The notes: a model not told the origin generated them from the sequence alone. DNA of 64,000 nucleotides from an uncultured Candidatus Peribacteria bacterium (GCA_964448405.1 CAYUVW010000001.1:17795-81794), one strand, 5' to 3'; positions 24,560 to 33,474 are shown, numbered from the stretch's first letter. Made by a program: numbers and translations.

Positions 24560-24732
24560 ACGGAGAGGGGGAAGTATTCATGCATGATAGGCAGATTCGT
24601 CGGCACCGCAAATTCTGCGAGTTGCCGGAACCCGCGTGGACCGCTGCTAGCCCCCATGTCGCCTGCTCTCCATTTGGCACCAGGCATTCTTTTGACACGC
24701 GTCCCCGATCGGCTACCATTCCCCTCCTCCCT

Positions 24733-26712
24733 ATGAACACTCCTGCATCCCTGGAACAGGCTCGCGAAGTACGTACGCAGTACACGGTGCGAGAATTACT
24801 GGATCGAGTGCAGCGCGGACGATTCGTTTTGGATTGTTCGCTGGAAGCTTTCTTAGAGGGATTGAAAGGCGATGCGCAGGCTGCGCATGGCGCGGGTGGC
24901 CTTGGTTTTTTGGAAGGCGAGACCTACGGTGCGTACGAAAAAGCAGGTGTGAACGCAGCCGGATGCATTCCCGGATACAGCACCCTGCGCAAAGGCGATG
25001 TCCAAGTTGACGTTCCTTGGGAAGGCAGCGGCGCGGTTCCGCTCACCGATGACGACGGCCAGGTTGTGCGGTGCGATGTGCCGTTGAACGGACATTCTCT
25101 ACCGGCCGAATTTTGGATTGTGGAAGAAGGGACAACTCCGGTGCTGCTTATTCGGCAGCCGCAGATTTTCCATGTGCGCTACCCCGACGATGCCGCCGAA
25201 AAACTCAAGCAGTACATGTTCTTCGGTCGCGCTGTCGTGGAAATGTGCAAGCGGCTCCGCATCGACCCGTCGGTGATTCGTATCAACGAAGCGCAGCTCG
25301 TACCGGTCATCATGGCGGTGGATCATCACCGTGAGCAGACTCGCGGACAAATCGGCGCATTGCTCGATAGCACGAAATTCGCCTTCACAAACCATACACA
25401 GGAGCGTGCGGCGCTGCCATCGTGGGCCAATCGTCGGTGGGTGGAAGGTGTTGTGGGCCACGATACCGTTCCACGCAATGCTTGGTCGCAACTGCCGCAG
25501 TATCATCCCATGGTGCAGGCAGACGAGCGGCAGGGTTATTTGGGGCCTCCTGCGCGCGAGGGTGAAGGAGGTGTGAAGTACTATGACTACATTGAGCCGT
25601 TGAACTACGGTCTGCACAGAGCAAGTGCGGTCAACATGGTGTCCAAAGAACACGGAACGATCAGTCGTGAAGTCATCTTCCCGACGCAATCGCCGGATCA
25701 GCGTTTGGCTCCGGATATCCAGGCAAAATTGCTCACCATTACCAATGGTTCCGATCGTGAGCGATGGACGAGCCCTGCATTGCGCGCGATTCAGGCGAGC
25801 AAGACATCGTTAGACGATGTGACCGGTGAAGAATTGCTGGAGGCACGCTTGCAGACAAAAGGAGAGCTGAATGCCTACCTTGAGAAAAACGGCCTGCCGG
25901 CACTGAATGCCATCGGCGAAAAACCGCTCATCGCGCTCACGCGCAGACATGTGGAATACAAAGAAATCGGAGCACTCATCCCACTCATTCGCTGGATGTG
26001 CGGAGACCCGACGCAAGAGTATGACGTTCCCGGCGGCCGAAGGGCCGGCCTCGGTGCGAACGTGCTCATCGGCGGTGTTGCAAGCGATACGGTTGGTCGA
26101 TCATGGAAGGATCAATTCAATGAGCTGCAATCCGACCCCGCGCTCAGCGGGCGGTTCGTGTTTGCTCCACGCACCGGTATTGAATTCATGCGCTTGTGCA
26201 CCGGTTCGGCCGACTTCTGGATTCATGGCCCACGCCCTACCCGCGAGGCTTGCGGCACGTCCTACGAGCGTGCGGTGTTCTCCGGCGGCTGGAATATTTG
26301 CACTGCCACGGGAGGCCCCATGGAACACATCCGCGATGACGAGAACGGATCGATTGTGAACCTGTTCCCCGATATGAGCCCCGAGATGGTGACCAGAATC
26401 TTCGACGGCGAACACGGCGAAGATGTGCAGCGACGCCTTGTTGCTCGTTTCCAAGAGCGATGGCAACAGTACCTGCTCAACAAGCTCACCGAACTTACTG
26501 CGCGCCGCGCCGCTCCCGGCGGTGCCGCAGAAATGGCAAAAGAGGTCTACGGCACGTCCGACTCCATGGGTATCGATCGCATGGCCCATACGTACAAATT
26601 GCTGTTCCGTGCCATTATGGACAATGCATTGCAGGACCGCCTGAAAGACGGAACCCTGCAGCCCGCAGAGCCGTTCGAGAAGCATGCAGACGTTGCATCG
26701 CTGTTAGATTAA
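24733..26712 (+). CDS. highly divergent alpha-glucan phosphorylase (GT35)-like protein lacking the PLP lysine
   Basis: It aligns block by block with the glgP in this window and with the family: AGGLGFLEGE (vs GGLGVLAGD), INEAQLVP (vs MNEGHAAF), FAFTNHTQE, ITNGSDRERW and RPTREACGTSYER (vs RP.EASGTSGMK). Confidence 0.7.
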   Translation: MNTPASLEQAREVRTQYTVRELLDRVQRGRFVLDCSLEAFLEGLKGDAQAAHGAGGLGFLEGETYGAYEKAGVNAAGCIPGYSTLRKGDVQVDVPWEGSGAVPLTDDDGQVVRCDVPLNGHSLPAEFWIVEEGTTPVLLIRQPQIFHVRYPDDAAEKLKQYMFFGRAVVEMCKRLRIDPSVIRINEAQLVPVIMAVDHHREQTRGQIGALLDSTKFAFTNHTQERAALPSWANRRWVEGVVGHDTVPRNAWSQLPQYHPMVQADERQGYLGPPAREGEGGVKYYDYIEPLNYGLHRASAVNMVSKEHGTISREVIFPTQSPDQRLAPDIQAKLLTITNGSDRERWTSPALRAIQASKTSLDDVTGEELLEARLQTKGELNAYLEKNGLPALNAIGEKPLIALTRRHVEYKEIGALIPLIRWMCGDPTQEYDVPGGRRAGLGANVLIGGVASDTVGRSWKDQFNELQSDPALSGRFVFAPRTGIEFMRLCTGSADFWIHGPRPTREACGTSYERAVFSGGWNICTATGGPMEHIRDDENGSIVNLFPDMSPEMVTRIFDGEHGEDVQRRLVARFQERWQQYLLNKLTELTARRAAPGGAAEMAKEVYGTSDSMGIDRMAHTYKLLFRAIMDNALQDRLKDGTLQPAEPFEKHADVASLLD

Positions 26713-26715
26713 GCA

Positions 26716-27012
26716 CTATTTCTTGCAGTTCAGTGCTTTACGCCAACCCGCATTGAGCGCGTCTTTCTCCGTGCAGAACCACCGCTCGCCGGCGGCGGTA
26801 TCGATGACGGTCTGCTTATACGAAGCGCACGTTGGCAGGTGGTAAATCTTCTCGTCCTTCTTGGACGAAATATTTCCCTTAATGATGCACGCCGCCGCCG
26901 AACTCGAGCTGGAGGATGCTTTTTTCTTGGCTGCGGCAAAGGCGACGCCACCACTTCCAAACATCAGCGTGGCGATCAATGAAAGATTCAGCAGGGTGCG
27001 CATGGACTCCAC
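26716..27012 (-). CDS. small secreted Cys-containing protein (sunset-type domain as I recall the pattern)
   Basis: Signal peptide, Ser-rich linker, then [27 protein letters not shown]...[18 protein letters not shown]. Confidence 0.55.
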
Positions 27013-27069: not shown

Positions 27070-28224
27070 CTACTTGGCTGCCTTCTTCAGATCCTCGAGG
27101 CGCGTGCACTTCTCCCACGCGACGTCGGTGTCTTCACGGCCCATGTGGCCGTAGGCGGCGATTTTCTGGTACTGCGGCTTCAGCAGGTCCAAGTCCTTAA
27201 TGATGTGCGCCGGGCGCAAATCAAAGGTCTTCTGCACGGCCTCGGCCAGCTTGGCGTCCGAGACGGTGCCGGTGCCGAACGTGTCGACGCGGATGCTCAC
27301 CGGAGCGGCCACGCCGATGGCGTAGGCCACCTGGACTTCACACTTCTTTGCCAAACCTGCCTTCACCACGTGCTTGGCGACCCAGCGTGCGGCATAGGCT
27401 GCCGAGCGGTCTACCTTGCTTGGGTCCTTGCCCGAGAAGGCACCTCCACCGTGGCGGCTGTATCCGCCGTAGGTGTCCACGATGATCTTGCGTCCGGTCA
27501 CGCCGCAGTCGCCCGGAGGACCTCCGATAACGAAGCGTCCGGTCGGGTTGATGTGGTACACGGTCTTGGCGTCGAGCCACTTGCCGCAGACGGGCTCGAT
27601 AATGAATTTCTTCACGTCCTTGCAGATCTGTTCATGCGACACGTCCTCGGCGTGCTGCGTGGAAATAACCACTGCGTGTACACGCTTCGGGAGTCCGTCC
27701 TCGCCGTACTCGACCGTCACCTGGCTCTTGCCGTCCGGACGCAGGTACTTGAGTCCGCCGGCCTTGCGCACCTCCGAGAGCTTGCGCGTGAGCTTGTGGG
27801 CTAATGAAATCGGCAGCGGCATCAACTCCGGAGTCTCGTCGCAGGCGTAACCGAACATCAGACCCTGGTCGCCGGCGCCCTGCTCTTCTTTCTTCTTGCC
27901 TTCGGCCACACCCTGGTCGATGTCGGCGGACTGTTCGCCGACGCAGATCATGACGGCGCAGGCCTTGTGATCGAAGCCGTACACGGCGTCGTCGTAACCG
28001 ATCTGACGGATGGTCTCACGGGCGATGTCGGCCATCGGGATGTAGGTCTTGGTCTTGATTTCGCCGGCCACGACCACCAAACCGGTGGTCACAAGGCACT
28101 CGCAGGCGACGTGCGAAGCGGGGTCCTTGGACAACGCATAGTCCAGGATCGCGTCGCTGATCTGGTCACAGACTTTGTCGGGGTGACCCTCGGTCACCGA
28201 TTCCGACGTGAACAGGGAGGACAT
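27070..28224 (-). CDS. metK: S-adenosylmethionine synthetase
   Basis: [40 protein letters not shown] and the GGGAFSGKD motifs. Start at ATG 28224. Confidence 0.95.
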
Positions 28225-28452: not shown

Positions 28453-29481
28453 TCAGCCGTGTTTTCGAAACTCCGGCCGAGTCAGGACATCGTCGATGAT
28501 GTCTCGAAATTCTTCGTGATCCAGACGTCCCGGCCAGTAGCCTCCGAGCATACGTACGGGCTGCAGCTCCAGTTCCGCGTAGCGCCTGCGTGCAAAGCGC
28601 CGGCCGAGATTCTCGTCGTCCAGCACATCGCGTTCCACACGTTCGGAAAGCTTGTACACACCGCCGGGCATCACCGAGTGGCGACCCGCCCCGTCGATGA
28701 CGGTGCGCAGCCCCAGCATGCTCGGGTAGCCGTCCCATTTTATGGAACCGACCGGCGTGCCATCGTCGGCTTCCACGATTGTCAGACGTCCGTAGCCGTC
28801 GCCATGATCGGCCAGCGCGCGCTGGTGGAACACCTCCGCGTTGTCACATTCACCTTTGTCGGTCGGATCCAGGTAGCGCCGTGGCGTCACCATGTCGCTC
28901 GCTACGACCCTGGCCGAAGTCGCCTCCTCGATCGGTCCGCGGTCCAGGTAGTCCGGCAGTTCCTCGGGTGCAATAAACGAGAGCACCGGAGGCAGTGCGC
29001 GGTAGCATGCGATGACGTCCCAAATTCGTCGCACTACACGCGTGTTTGCGGGCGAGTCGAAGTGCCGCAGGATTTTGCCGAACTGCTTACCGAATTCCAG
29101 TGCGGTCATCGGGTCGTTTCGCAACCGCTTGGCCGTCGTCAATGCCTCGATCAGACGTGCTTGTATGCCCATATCCGCGTGATCCGCAATGATCTCCAAG
29201 TGCCGCAGCGTCTGGCGCGCGGCGTCGCGCGCGGAGAAAATGACATCCCGCTTCGCGTCGATCAGGCGCAGCAAATGGGCGGGGTCGTGGTCCTCCAGTA
29301 GGGCCGGCAGATAGCGCAACAAGAGGTCGACGCCGTAGCGCGTGTCGTTCGGGTCCATCGCGATGTCCAGCATCAGGTCGCGTTCGGCCATGGTGTACAA
29401 CTCCTCCGAATGCCACTCGGCGAATTCTTCGTCGCAGCCTTCCACGGCCACCAGGTGCCGGCGGTAGTGTTCTTGCTTCAT
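28453..29481 (-). CDS. hypothetical protein (~342 aa), translationally coupled to NAT-like A
   Basis: ATG 29481 overlaps the TGA of the upstream gene (ATGA). No motif recognised. Confidence 0.6.
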   Translation of the reverse strand: MKQEHYRRHLVAVEGCDEEFAEWHSEELYTMAERDLMLDIAMDPNDTRYGVDLLLRYLPALLEDHDPAHLLRLIDAKRDVIFSARDAARQTLRHLEIIADHADMGIQARLIEALTTAKRLRNDPMTALEFGKQFGKILRHFDSPANTRVVRRIWDVIACYRALPPVLSFIAPEELPDYLDRGPIEEATSARVVASDMVTPRRYLDPTDKGECDNAEVFHQRALADHGDGYGRLTIVEADDGTPVGSIKWDGYPSMLGLRTVIDGAGRHSVMPGGVYKLSERVERDVLDDENLGRRFARRRYAELELQPVRMLGGYWPGRLDHEEFRDIIDDVLTRPEFRKHG

Positions 29482-30320
29482 GATTGCGGTTCGTCGTAAT
29501 CCGGGTGCAGTCTTTTGTAATATCCCCAACCTTCCTGGAACAGCTCCATGAGCATGCAGCGGTCGGCGCCAATGAGCCTGGCAACTCGGTTGAATTCGTC
29601 GGCGAATCCCGCCTCGCGCTCGAATCGGGCGTATGTTTGGCCTTCGCCGATCCGTCCGGCTTCCATGGCTCCCGTTGCAGTTTTCAGAGCCACGTACGAT
29701 TTCGATCCATCTGCTCCAAGTGCGTGCAACACCAGTTCGTCCACCGGAGTGCGTGCCATTGTCTCATTGAACGGGTGATCTTCCTCATCGTCGGGCAACG
29801 CTATGGCCCGGCGCATATTCAATATTGCCTGACGTCCGAACCAATCATTGCGCTCACTGACCAGCATGGTGGAAAGCATCCGCCCGTCACCCACCCACTT
29901 GGAAAACAGCAGTCGTCCTTTGCCCGGCATAATCGGAAACGTGCGTACAAGCGCATGCTGCCCCAGTCCCATTGGCAATTGATCCAGTGGCACGGGCTGA
30001 GTCGCAAGCTCGGTGATTTCATGCAGCAGCGTGCCGCGTTCCGAGTACGTTACCGGCATAACGTGGCCGTCGGTACTGACGCCGCTTTGGTTATACAGTC
30101 CTACGATGACCTGCGAATCGCCGTCGCGCAGCATCTGTCGAAAGACGTGTGCTTGGTACAGGCAGTCGCCGCCAAGCGTTCGATAGACGGTTTCACCGTA
30201 GTAGCGAAACAGCCTGGCGATGTTCGTGAACGGTACCGATCGTTGCACCTCCAACAGCGCGTTGGATTCCGGGGTATCCAAGCGTTCCACTCCGCCGAAT
30301 GAACGGGTGCGATGATCCAT
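29478..30320 (-). CDS. arylamine N-acetyltransferase / transglutaminase-fold-like Cys-His protein, paralog A
   Basis: VPFTNIARLF (cf. NAT IPFENLD), LGGDCLYQAHVF (cf. RGGYCFELN, catalytic Cys) and DGHVMPVTY (cf. THLLLLV, catalytic His). About 30% identical by eye to 32165..32947. Confidence 0.55.
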   Translation of the reverse strand: MDHRTRSFGGVERLDTPESNALLEVQRSVPFTNIARLFRYYGETVYRTLGGDCLYQAHVFRQMLRDGDSQVIVGLYNQSGVSTDGHVMPVTYSERGTLLHEITELATQPVPLDQLPMGLGQHALVRTFPIMPGKGRLLFSKWVGDGRMLSTMLVSERNDWFGRQAILNMRRAIALPDDEEDHPFNETMARTPVDELVLHALGADGSKSYVALKTATGAMEAGRIGEGQTYARFEREAGFADEFNRVARLIGADRCMLMELFQEGWGYYKRLHPDYDEPQS

Positions 30321-30331
30321 TTTTAATACGC

Positions 30332-30360
30332 ATTTAAAAACATTTAATTAAATATGTCAA
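30332..30360 (-). promoter_or_regulatory. near-consensus sigma70 promoter TTGACA-N17-TTAAAT, 11 nt before the NAT-like A ATG
   Basis: Read on the minus strand (plus TGTCAA 30355-30360 and ATTTAA 30332-30337), in a local AT-rich island. Confidence 0.55.
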
Positions 30361-30381
30361 GAAACACCCGATTCGGGGGTG
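30361..30381 (-). terminator. terminator of the 134-aa gene
   Basis: Minus-strand CACCC-CCGAAUC-GGGUG followed by UUUCUU. The U tract runs into the -35 of the next promoter. Confidence 0.45.
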
Positions 30382-30407
30382 GCGCGGAAGATCGGCGATG
30401 GCTTTCG

Positions 30408-30812
30408 CTAGGCCGCGCGGCGCTGGTCGCCGGGGCGCTCAATCTGTTCAGTTTTGGGGGTGTCCAGAGCTGCCAGAACCTGGCTCTGCGTAGTTTTGAG
30501 TGCAAGCAGACCTTCCACATCGCCAGCCTCCTTCAGCGTGTCTTGGGCTTTCTTGAACGAGGTCTCCAAGAACAGGCGCACTTTGGCGCCGTTGGCGTTC
30601 ATTAAGAACGTGCGGACGGGGTTGTTCGGGTCATCCAAGTGCGTTTTCAATCCCATGGCGTCCACCACCGTGTCGGCAGCGTCGGACTCGGCAATAAGGT
30701 TCAGCGCTTCTGCCACGCGCTTCTGCTGCTCGGCGTTGTTCTGCAGGCGCAGGGTGTTTGCCTGTTCGCCATCGGGTCCGCGATCGGGTGCGATTTCAAT
30801 GTGATTGACCAT
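30408..30812 (-). CDS. hypothetical protein (134 aa)
   Basis: ORF with ordinary composition. TATACT-type -10 about 40 nt upstream. Confidence 0.5.
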   Translation of the reverse strand: MVNHIEIAPDRGPDGEQANTLRLQNNAEQQKRVAEALNLIAESDAADTVVDAMGLKTHLDDPNNPVRTFLMNANGAKVRLFLETSFKKAQDTLKEAGDVEGLLALKTTQSQVLAALDTPKTEQIERPGDQRRAA

Positions 30813-30875
30813 ACAACGAGTGGGAATTGAGTGTGGGTATTTCTGCTCAGTATAGCATAGAAACGCGTTTTGCCG

Positions 30876-31895
30876 CTACTCTGCCGTTTTGGTGACTTGC
30901 TCGCGGGCAACCTTCACCTTATCGGCATTCTGCGCCAACCATTCCTTGAATTTCGGCAGTGTCTCGGGAGTGGTGACGGGGTCCTTCACCAGCATGTTGC
31001 CGTAGTCTTTTAGCAACACCGCACGCACATTTTTATCGATTCCACTGGCGCCGCTTTCTTCGCAATACGCGAGTGCATCATCGAATTTTTCTGCCAACAC
31101 GTTGAACTTCTTGGCCGCGTTGCGTTCGGCTTCGGTTTTGGGTGGCTCAAGGGTCAGGCGGTCGTAACGCACCTTATCTGGAGTTTCGGCTTTGTAGATG
31201 GCGTTGCGGAATTCACGCATGGAATTTCGTCCACGTGGACCAATAGCTCGATCGCTCGGCGCCCCGCGAACAGTGCGGACCTGCTCCCCGGAAGCTTCGC
31301 GCTTCCCTTGCTCCTCTTCGGGATTTTCTACGCCTTTCTCCTTCAGCGCCTTGACGATGTTCGTCTTCACGATTTGCAGTGACTTGAGCATGGCGCTCTT
31401 CACGAAATCAATCGCCTTGTTGGAGTCGGCGCCCTGCATGCCGCCAACAGTGGCGTCATTGGGTTGCTCAGCTTTGTACTTCTCGAACGCATTCTTCAGT
31501 TCGCGCTGCAAAGCACTGCCCAAACTTTCCGGCGTGTGACTGGAGACATACTTTTCAGAGCCGTTAACGCGCGCCAAATCACTGCGCAGACGGTCGGGCT
31601 CACGTTTTGAAAAATCAGTGTTCACGTTCATGTCCAAGCCCTGTTGCATGCTTGGTTCGAGTTCCTTGATCAAAAGCTCCTCCAGGCGTTCGGAGCCCTC
31701 CTTCTTCTCCTTGCCGTCTTCACCGCCTTCGGCGGCAATCACTTTTTCCAGCTTTTGGTTACGAGCTTTCTCGCTGGCAATCTGCTTGCGCAGCGCATCG
31801 GGGTTGTCCTGGCTCGACTGATCAGCGCTTTCCTTTTTTTCACGCTGCTCAACATTGTCGGGCTCGGCCTGTGGCTGTTCCTGGTCGGGCATCAT
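30876..31895 (-). CDS. hypothetical charged (Glu/Lys-rich) protein (339 aa)
   Basis: Its ATG overlaps the upstream TGA (ATGA at 31892-31895). No motif recognised. Confidence 0.6.
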   Translation of the reverse strand: MMPDQEQPQAEPDNVEQREKKESADQSSQDNPDALRKQIASEKARNQKLEKVIAAEGGEDGKEKKEGSERLEELLIKELEPSMQQGLDMNVNTDFSKREPDRLRSDLARVNGSEKYVSSHTPESLGSALQRELKNAFEKYKAEQPNDATVGGMQGADSNKAIDFVKSAMLKSLQIVKTNIVKALKEKGVENPEEEQGKREASGEQVRTVRGAPSDRAIGPRGRNSMREFRNAIYKAETPDKVRYDRLTLEPPKTEAERNAAKKFNVLAEKFDDALAYCEESGASGIDKNVRAVLLKDYGNMLVKDPVTTPETLPKFKEWLAQNADKVKVAREQVTKTAE

Positions 31896-32122
31896 GCCTT
31901 TGGCTGGGAAGCGGGAAGATCCTCAAGAGTTTCAAGCAATTGCAATGCCGCCGCCGAGTCCTTCTCGGCCTGCGTTTTTTCCACGCGGTGCGCCTTGTCT
32001 ACCAACACGCGGTGGCGGTCTTTTTCCACTTGCAGCTCGGCTTTCAGCCGCGCCACTTCCTCGGAATCGCCGCCAGAAACCTTGGCGCCGAATATGCCGT
32101 CTGCAGCAGGAGAAGTTGCCAT
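31892..32122 (-). CDS. hypothetical coiled-coil protein (76 aa)
   Basis: Heptad-like EEVARLKAELQVEKDRHRVLVDKAHRVEKTQAEKD. Coupled to the next gene. Confidence 0.45.
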   Translation of the reverse strand: MATSPAADGIFGAKVSGGDSEEVARLKAELQVEKDRHRVLVDKAHRVEKTQAEKDSAAALQLLETLEDLPASQPKA

Positions 32123-32164
32123 CTCCTCATTGTACCAGAAAACGACGTTCGAGGCTACTCCTCC

Positions 32165-32947
32165 CTAGAGAAAACCCTGGAGCTCCCGCTCCATTTTCCA
32201 GCCTTCTTGGAAGAATTCCATCAGCTGCGCACGCCGCACGCCAACCGATTGTGCTACATACTCGAACGCCTGTTCAAAGCGCTTGCTGCCGCCATGCGCC
32301 GTCTCGCTTCCCACAATCTGCGCTGTCATCGCACCGTCGATCGGGTCCAGCGTCACCGCCACTTTGCCGAAGTCGGCATCCAGTGCATGCAGGCGCAGCG
32401 GTTTGCGCGGTATGCGGGCCATCATGTCGTCGATGGGGTGCGTGCTGTCCGGCAGCTCGATTGGCGAATCGGTTGCAATGCGGTGGTGCAACAAGCCGCC
32501 GTCGCAGCCGCTGATCATACTGATGTTCAGTTGCTCCAAATGCGGCAACCAAAAGCACGACAGCGCCCGGTCGCCACGCGGTGGCAATGGAAACGTGCGT
32601 ATACGCTTCTCGTTGGCACGTCCGCGAATATCGGCCAGTGAAATCGGTTCAGCTGCCAATTGGGTAATCTCGAAGATCTGGCGTTCATCGCCGTCACCGG
32701 TGATGGGCACGATATGCCCGCTGGTGCCCTCACCTTCGGAATTGTGGAACCGTACCGGTACGCCGGATATCGCCGCGCGAAAACGTTCGCCAAACAAATA
32801 TGCCTGGTACAAACAATCGCCGCCGAAGCGCGGGTTGGGCCGCTCGCCATTCAGTAGATACAGATTCGAAACGTTGTTGTACGGCACGGCCAACTCGGTC
32901 GCATGGAGTACGCGTGTGAAGGTCGGTGGTGCGTGGCGAGTGGCCAT
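32165..32947 (-). CDS. NAT / transglutaminase-fold-like Cys-His protein, paralog B
   Basis: VPYNNVSNLY, FGGDCLYQAYLF, SGHIVPITG, FEITQLA, RTFPLPP and MEFFQEGW. Each block matches paralog A. Confidence 0.55.
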   Translation of the reverse strand: MATRHAPPTFTRVLHATELAVPYNNVSNLYLLNGERPNPRFGGDCLYQAYLFGERFRAAISGVPVRFHNSEGEGTSGHIVPITGDGDERQIFEITQLAAEPISLADIRGRANEKRIRTFPLPPRGDRALSCFWLPHLEQLNISMISGCDGGLLHHRIATDSPIELPDSTHPIDDMMARIPRKPLRLHALDADFGKVAVTLDPIDGAMTAQIVGSETAHGGSKRFEQAFEYVAQSVGVRRAQLMEFFQEGWKMERELQGFL

Positions 32948-32958
32948 GGCCGACGATT

Positions 32959-33474
32959 CTACAGCTCTGTCGCGGCGGGTTCCACCGCTCTCTGTGGGAT
33001 CGTACGTACCGTGAATGCGTGGCCTGTGTGCTTGGTGAATGCCTCGAAGCCGGCACGATCGACAATGAGCGTCGCGGTGTTGATGAGCGGGTGAAAGCGG
33101 AACTGCCCGACGTTCCAGGCGTCTTCATCCACGATCACTTCCACGGTGTGGCTCTTGTCGAACATCAGTCCGAACGGCGTTACCGATCCGGGTTCCACGC
33201 CAAGCAATTCCTTCAACAATTCCGGTGACGCAAAACTGAAGCTCTGCACACCGTACTCTTTCGCCAGCGCACGCGTGTCCACGCGCTTGTCATGCATCAC
33301 GATCGCAAGTACGTGTTTGTCGCGTTTCTTGCTCCGCAGCAGCAGTTGTTTGGTGTGGGCGCCCGGCATCGGCTGGCAGATCTTGTCGGATTCCTCGCAG
33401 GTGAAGACCGCCGGGTGGTCGAAGCGCTGGAACGGTATTGAAAGTTTAGCGAGAAGCTGCAGAAGGGTATCCAT
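32959..33474 (-). CDS. YbaK/ProX-type aminoacyl-tRNA deacylase domain protein
   Basis: HPAVFTCEES...AHTKQLLLRSKK...LAIVMHDKRVD...LGVEPGSVTPFGL. Start at ATG 33474. Confidence 0.75.
   Translation of the reverse strand: MDTLLQLLAKLSIPFQRFDHPAVFTCEESDKICQPMPGAHTKQLLLRSKKRDKHVLAIVMHDKRVDTRALAKEYGVQSFSFASPELLKELLGVEPGSVTPFGLMFDKSHTVEVIVDEDAWNVGQFRFHPLINTATLIVDRAGFEAFTKHTGHAFTVRTIPQRAVEPAATEL

Follow-up and report, generated by a model that had tools for sequence, protein, structure and literature searches.

Two paralogous proteins with a predicted arylamine N-acetyltransferase fold beside orphan genes in Candidatus Peribacteria

A 64-kb stretch of DNA from an uncultured Candidatus Peribacteria bacterium, referred to here as the window, carries six close-packed genes on the minus strand between a ybaK-type gene and metK (28453-32947; all coordinates are positions in the whole window). 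Two of these genes encode the related proteins A and B, and the other four encode the orphan proteins p76, p339, p134 and p342. The locus raises the question of what A and B are, and of whether the genes beside them are their partners. The original prediction, made from the sequence, described a seven-gene cluster in which a duplicated enzyme resembling arylamine N-acetyltransferases (NATs) is tightly coupled, copy by copy, to unrelated partner proteins. All the open reading frames (ORFs) that it listed lie on the minus strand where it placed them, but they make up six genes, and seven only when ybaK is counted. We consider it probable that A and B are old paralogs from a rare, uncatalogued NAT branch, that they are acyltransferases, and that the adjoining genes are neighbors rather than demonstrated partners.

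Relationship of A and B to arylamine N-acetyltransferases

A BLASTP alignment of A with B shows 34% identity over 254 residues (E 1e-42), and every sequence block that the two proteins were said to share is found in both. By this alignment A and B are true paralogs. Scans of Pfam, NCBIfam, PADLOC and PHROGs gave no match for either protein. Against the NAT family model PF00797 (Acetyltransf_2) there was no match even at E <= 1, and the curated cut-off of that family is not reached.

A word-indexed search found only four close relatives for A and six for B. An exhaustive HMMER search with a profile of A and B against 1.84 billion cluster representatives returned 68 proteins, nearly all of 240-290 aa. 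The family alignment consists of 63 of these matches together with A and B, 65 sequences in all. PF00797 matches one family member of the 65, weakly (E 0.0027), and the Pfam models for the transglutaminase core and for cysteine peptidases match neither A, B nor any of the 65 relatives. Gly50, Cys53 and His86 (numbering of A) are invariant in the alignment (65/65), so the Cys and His are conserved in homologs as had been expected of them, and the proline of VP(Y/F)N is kept in 62 of the 65. At residue 101, 54 sequences have Asp, 10 have Glu and one has Ala; A, B and all orthologs of both have Glu. In a rough neighbor-joining tree, calculated without support values, Asp and Glu at position 101 alternate among neighboring branches, which fits a functional acidic residue. 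A and B group in the same tree with the stand-alone proteins P0011 and P0012, and this suggests that the split between A and B predates the Peribacteria clade.

When the 65-sequence profile was compared with the sequences of the Protein Data Bank (PDB), the arylamine N-acyltransferase 8k51 scored best (E 6.9e-4), in an alignment that pairs up GGNC, His and Asp. Proteins with a BtrH N-terminal domain (E 0.017) and the amide synthase GdmF (E 0.49) were matched more weakly. Single-sequence and 11-sequence profiles gave no match to PDB sequences. Profile-profile alignment by hhalign with NhoA from E. coli gave a probability of 80.6% (E 1.3e-5) and paired VPYN with IPFEN, GGxC with GGYC, His86 with His107, and Glu101 with Asp122. 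With a set of nine NATs from E. coli and plasmids, of which six carry the NAT annotation in their records, the probability was 91.9% (E 7e-7), and Cys, His and Glu fell on the NAT Cys, His and Asp.

A structural model of A was calculated with AlphaFold2 (AF2) from the 65-sequence alignment, with a predicted local distance difference test score (pLDDT) of 92.4 and a predicted template modeling score (pTM) of 0.91. A Foldseek search of the PDB with this model gave only two matches below E 1e-3, and both are NATs. The first, 1w6f_D, is the M. smegmatis NAT (E 1.6e-6, probability 1.00, template modeling (TM) score 0.50), which is matched over its full length in ~300 aligned columns. The second, 8k56_A, is an arylamine N-acyltransferase from Streptomyces aureus (E 2.7e-6, probability 1.00). 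The TM scores for the two are 0.43-0.51, and the next match has an E value of 0.012. The model places Cys53 at the first position of helix 53-67, His86 before strand 88-93, and Glu101 after strand 96-99; this predicted placement is the papain/NAT arrangement. Model and Foldseek matches also assign to A the three-domain fold of NATs, with a helical bundle, a beta-barrel and an alpha/beta lid, at a borderline TM score.

The three independent tests, profile against PDB, hhalign, and Foldseek on the model, agree on the NAT link, as the original prediction had it. The fold and the Cys-His-Glu triad of A and B are thus supported by computation. The proposed replacement of Asp by Glu in the triad also stands, with Glu101 of A and Glu93 of B aligned with the NAT Asp.

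The published NAT motifs are VPFENL, RGGYC, THRL and VDV (PMC11213898). A and B are similar to NATs (PF00797; NhoA, 1w6f) in size (~260-280 aa), in the full-length fold match, and in the order of the motifs VP(F/Y)xN, GG-x-C, H and acid. The catalytic Cys (RGGYC) and His (THRL) are found at homologous positions, and the acidic third residue of the triad, Asp or Glu, follows the His at the same 15-residue spacing. In contrast to NATs, A and B stay under every Pfam and NCBIfam threshold, their sequence similarity is confined to the first ~100 residues, and they have GGDC for RGGYC and Glu for Asp. Judged by the Pfam model, A and B do not belong to PF00797; their fold, their triad and the order of their motifs make them a divergent variant within the NAT superfamily.

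Glu in the third triad position is shared with (BACCE)NAT3 from Bacillus cereus, which is described as a NAT that is active with a Cys-His-Glu triad (PMC11213898). Because that enzyme is active with Glu according to this description, Glu101 and Glu93 need not mean lost function. (BACCE)NAT3, compared here by its description, is formally annotated as a NAT (PMC11213898); A and B, in contrast, are recognized by none of the Pfam or NCBIfam models. Among the NAT-like N-acyltransferases and amide synthases (8k51/8k56, GdmF, RifF), 8k51 is the best PDB sequence match and 8k56 the second structural match, and these enzymes show that the NAT fold takes acyl donors beyond acetyl-coenzyme A (acetyl-CoA). 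They are encoded in polyketide or terpene clusters, whereas A and B are situated beside orphan soluble proteins and housekeeping genes. With papain- and transglutaminase-like enzymes, represented by the weakly matched BtrH N-terminal domain, A and B share a Cys that begins a helix, with the His and acid on or beside successive beta-strands. They differ from these enzymes in that no Pfam model matches and the full-length architecture of A is that of a NAT.

Close homologs are named Candidatus Peribacteria by NCBI, and the only organism-named family members are Candidatus Peribacteria. There is no third family copy in the 64-kb window. The assembly of L001, one of the close relatives, contains a third, more distant NAT-like paralog, P0023 (L021, 6001-6870), a stand-alone protein of 289 aa with an Asp-type triad; Peribacteria may have three or more members of the family. 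Another member is P0040 (L013, 7463-8764); in this 433-aa protein the NAT-like domain is preceded by a fused N-terminal stretch of ~180 residues without annotation. A candidate in Cognatiluteimonas (L019) was rejected as a chance pattern match within an M16 peptidase, and L025, a short and weak match, was set aside.

Gene content between ybaK and metK in related genomes

The genes between ybaK and metK in relatives were determined from gene calls and by tblastn. The close Peribacteria genomes are syntenic, with GT4, an S11 peptidase, a LysM-M23 peptidase, pgl, zwf, ybaK, the cluster and metK. The window and L015 contain B, p76, p339, p134, A and p342. In L007, L008 and L016 the same genes are present except p342, and in L003, L004 and L018 the gene for A is missing and p342 follows p134. 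L001 and L017 have the longest arrangement, B, p76, p339, p134, a 27%-identical paralog of p342, A and p342. B-p76-p339-p134 is therefore constant in all five close lineages, and A and p342 are present or absent independently of each other. B is present in every close relative, and ybaK adjoins B in all close Peribacteria loci.

These arrangements do not support the proposal that each copy of a duplicated enzyme is tightly coupled to its own partners, since A occurs without p342, p342 occurs without A, and L001 has an extra paralog of p342. The latter (L001 8985-10004, equivalent to L017 8973-9899) is a protein of 339 aa. In L001 its gene sits between p134 and A, where the window has the hairpin and promoter spacer, and its end overlaps the start codon of A.

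Homologs of A and B also occur as stand-alone genes. P0015 (L009) adjoins a LysM-M23 gene, P0012 (L012) is located between an ABC transporter gene and an IF-2B-family gene, and P0023 is followed by a glyoxalase-family gene. No partner homolog was found by tblastn in L009 to L013, and gene calls at further loci with distant homologs revealed only unrelated housekeeping neighbors. A YbaK neighbor is absent at the homologs in L009, L012, L013 and L020-L024. The idea that the paralogs are tied to their partners finds no support in these distant members, which stand alone among housekeeping genes with no partner homologs detectable nearby. The A/B enzyme family thus works as a stand-alone gene elsewhere.

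Because a single clade keeps the whole region as inherited synteny, the constant core and its adjacency to ybaK are not independent evidence of coupling. The partners were not found to co-occur across independent lineages or contexts; the core is constant within the clade. Comparative genomics argues against an obligate coupling of enzymes and partners, which is not supported.

Proposed activity and alternative readings

If A and B are divergent acyltransferases of the NAT superfamily, the triads Cys53/His86/Glu101 in A and Cys45/His78/Glu93 in B would carry catalysis. In a ping-pong mechanism, the Cys would first be acylated by an acyl thioester donor, for which acyl-CoA is the most likely candidate, and the resulting acyl-Cys intermediate would then acylate an amine acceptor. 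By analogy with the NAT family, acyl-thioester-dependent acyltransferase chemistry is most likely for both proteins, with putative substrates of the corresponding type. The branch is a rare one, with ~68 cluster representatives in 1.84 billion, and is captured by no Pfam or NCBIfam model. Proteins so far called hypothetical would gain a testable catalytic mechanism and residues to mutate, and A and B would add natural Cys-His-Glu variants of the NAT triad.

Several points weigh against this reading. The NAT sequence alignment spans only the first ~100 residues, and a TM score of 0.50 with a root-mean-square deviation of 9 Å is a borderline fold match. The NAT link rests on profile-profile and predicted-structure evidence, because A and B lack a PF00797 match and only one of the 65 relatives has a weak one. 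The placement of the triad in the model was read at the level of secondary structure and not as a three-dimensional superposition. A first AF2 model, calculated from 11 sequences (pLDDT 82), gave no Foldseek match in the PDB or in a viral library, and the structural match to NATs emerged only with the 65-sequence alignment; taken alone, the negative search with the shallow model would have led to a wrong rejection of the NAT fold. The acyl-CoA donor and the amine acceptor are assumptions made by analogy. Furthermore, the clade invariably has p76-p339-p134 after B, and p76 with p339 and A with p342 are translationally coupled. The constant B block and the translational coupling make a functional link of B or A with the neighboring proteins possible.

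Such a link would be realized in a functional module where the NAT-fold enzymes act on or with the co-encoded proteins. B could, for example, acylate lysines of p339 or p76; alternatively, the partners might serve the enzymes as scaffolds or regulate them. The invariant order B-p76-p339-p134 in the five close lineages is consistent with a module, as are the ATGA overlaps (p76/p339 and A/p342 in the window, p76/p339 also in the gene calls of relatives), the purifying selection on all partners and the 11% Lys of p339. However, the five lineages are one clade in which the whole region has the same order, A without p342 and p342 without A both occur, and distant homologs, including the third paralog in the sister genome, stand alone without partner homologs nearby. 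Characterized NATs, moreover, use small-molecule substrates (PMC11213898). We regard a functional module as unlikely. Its more specific form, in which B (and A) are NAT-fold protein acyltransferases with the Peribacteria-specific co-encoded proteins as substrates or scaffolds, as in lysine acylation of p339 or p76, appears quite improbable. If it were true, ybaK-B-p76-p339-p134, with or without A and p342, would form a protein-modification module specific to the lineage, with a NAT-fold enzyme that acts on a protein. A different reaction could also be carried by the same papain-like Cys-His-acid triad, such as hydrolysis (amidase, peptidase or thioesterase), transglutaminase-type cross-linking, or the formation of an amide bond or ring as in RifF and GdmF. 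The profile does touch BtrH N-terminal domain proteins and GdmF, non-acetyl chemistry of NAT homologs in secondary metabolism is documented (PMC11213898), and the A/B family is too divergent for a transfer of substrate specificity. On the other hand, the top sequence and structure matches are N-acyltransferases, the structural one over the full length, there are no polyketide or non-ribosomal peptide genes nearby, and the transglutaminase and peptidase Pfam models are unmatched. We therefore find a different reaction distinctly unlikely.

The short distance between ybaK and B, an adjacency that is kept in all close relatives, could point to enzymes that use aminoacyl-tRNA, or that cooperate with the adjacent YbaK deacylase in aminoacyl transfer or editing-linked chemistry. 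This is very improbable, as the adjacency is limited to one syntenic clade and the more distant homologs named above have no YbaK neighbor. To our knowledge, the aminoacyl-tRNA transferases known so far use other folds, and we know of no precedent that links the NAT fold to aminoacyl-tRNA chemistry. Neither the tRNA-linked nor the modular idea has support beyond synteny at the level of the clade, within which the B-p76-p339-p134 core is a possible unit. The orphan genes, the duplicated enzyme and the variable content at one locus might also bring to mind a mobile toxin-immunity or anti-phage defense island. PADLOC gave only noise (E > 0.04) and PHROGs no match, scans of viral contigs found no relatives, and the GC content is like that of the surroundings, so a mobile island is hardly credible. 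The cluster also occupies a fixed chromosomal site between housekeeping genes in every relative, and its genes have no secretion signals and are under strong purifying selection.

Locus layout, neighboring proteins and transcription signals

The features of the locus are listed in Table 1. The NCBIfam scan gave no subtype for the ybaK gene. Because only 11 nt separate its stop from the start codon of B, ybaK is probably the first gene of the B transcript. The mechanical ORF of p342 begins at TTG 29529, and the ATG at 29481 is favored by orthologs. Both ATGA couplings named in the original prediction are real in the sequence; the overlap reads 'ggcATGAtgc' for p76/p339, where it is also present in the gene calls of relatives, and 'atcATGAagc' for A/p342.

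Table 1. Features of the ybaK-metK region, with positions in the 64-kb window
Feature	Position	Strand	Description
ybaK	32959..33474	-	YbaK/ProX-type aminoacyl-tRNA editing-domain gene; 171 aa from ATG 33474; PF04073 E 6e-27
B	32165..32947	-	NAT-like paralog; 260 aa; predicted triad Cys45 (32813-32815), His78 (32714-32716), Glu93 (32669-32671)
p76	31892..32122	-	small Ala/Glu/Lys-rich protein, probably helical
p339	30876..31895	-	Glu/Lys-rich soluble protein; ATGA overlap with p76 stop
p134	30408..30812	-	acidic soluble protein
Intergenic signal	30332..30381	-	hairpin, TTGACA and TTAAAT; AT-rich, conserved; putative role, from sequence
A	29478..30320	-	NAT-like paralog; 280 aa; predicted triad Cys53 (30162-30164), His86 (30063-30065), Glu101 (30018-30020)
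p342	28453..29481	-	clade-restricted soluble protein; ATGA overlap with A stop
metK	27070..28224	-	S-adenosylmethionine synthetase; three SAM-synthetase Pfam domains; downstream flank, constant in relatives

The ratio of nonsynonymous to synonymous substitution rates relative to the closest relative is 0.05-0.12 for all six genes (0.10 for p76 and 0.05 for p339). All six are under purifying selection and are therefore real genes. The six proteins have no signal-like N terminus and no membrane segment (maximum 19-residue hydropathy <1.4), in agreement with the earlier statement that signal peptides are absent. p76, p339, p134 and p342 are thus real, soluble, cytoplasmic proteins, and they are confined to one Peribacteria clade. 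p76 contains the invariant motif AELQVEKDRH, and p339, with 12% Glu and 11% Lys, has several invariant blocks. Conserved motifs of p342 are G-x-C-x-x-A-E-x-x-H and DGTPxGxxKW; its only relatives are seven among 5.8 billion clusters, all from the same Peribacteria clade.

None of the four proteins gave a credible family, PDB-sequence or profile-profile signal (Pfam, NCBIfam, PADLOC, PHROGs, PDB profiles, hhalign). The profiles of p342 and p134 had no match in the PDB, and that of p339 matched only designed pentatricopeptide repeat proteins, and no single stretch passed; we judged this a composition or repeat artifact. A kinship of p342 to the NAT-like family or to p339 was rejected (hhalign probability 0.2%). 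For a 158-aa fragment of the p342 cluster (P0098), JGI gives the label 'DUF2249 family', but this assignment did not recur when seven members of the p342 family were scanned with Pfam. Scans of metagenome contigs with p339 and with the A/B alignment returned nothing relevant. Four well-conserved orphan proteins thus adjoin the enzymes, in a group of genomes where a function is assigned to only a minority of the lineage-specific genes, and a tie to the enzymes is not yet supported.

The gap between p134 and A is 87 nt long and AT-rich. At 30381-30365 it contains the hairpin CACCCCCGAATCGGGTG, with a stem of only 5 bp, followed by a T-run. A perfect TTGACA (30360-30355) is separated by a 17-nt spacer from TTAAAT (30337-30332), which lies 11 nt upstream of the ATG of A. 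A generic promoter scan did not call this site. L015 and L007 have the hairpin and TTGACA without any change, and the whole segment of the gap is nearly invariant there, unlike the proteins of L015 and L007, which are only ~57-96% identical to those of the window. The terminator and near-consensus promoter of the original prediction are accordingly present as sequence elements, and they probably divide two transcription units. The predicted units are ybaK-B-p76-p339-p134, and A-p342, which is probably transcribed from its own promoter.

Two further ORFs were noted in the window on the far side of metK. An ORF of 710 aa on the plus strand (24580-26712) has as its only Pfam signal a weak match of its N terminus to the starch-synthase catalytic domain (Glyco_transf_5, E 1e-7), which leaves the greater part of the protein without an assignment. 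On the minus strand, an ORF of 98 aa (26716-27012) may code for a small secreted protein; its N terminus is hydrophobic and signal-like, it contains a run of Ser residues, and Cys residues occur in its C-terminal half (…YHLPTC…WFCTEKDA…GWRKALNC).

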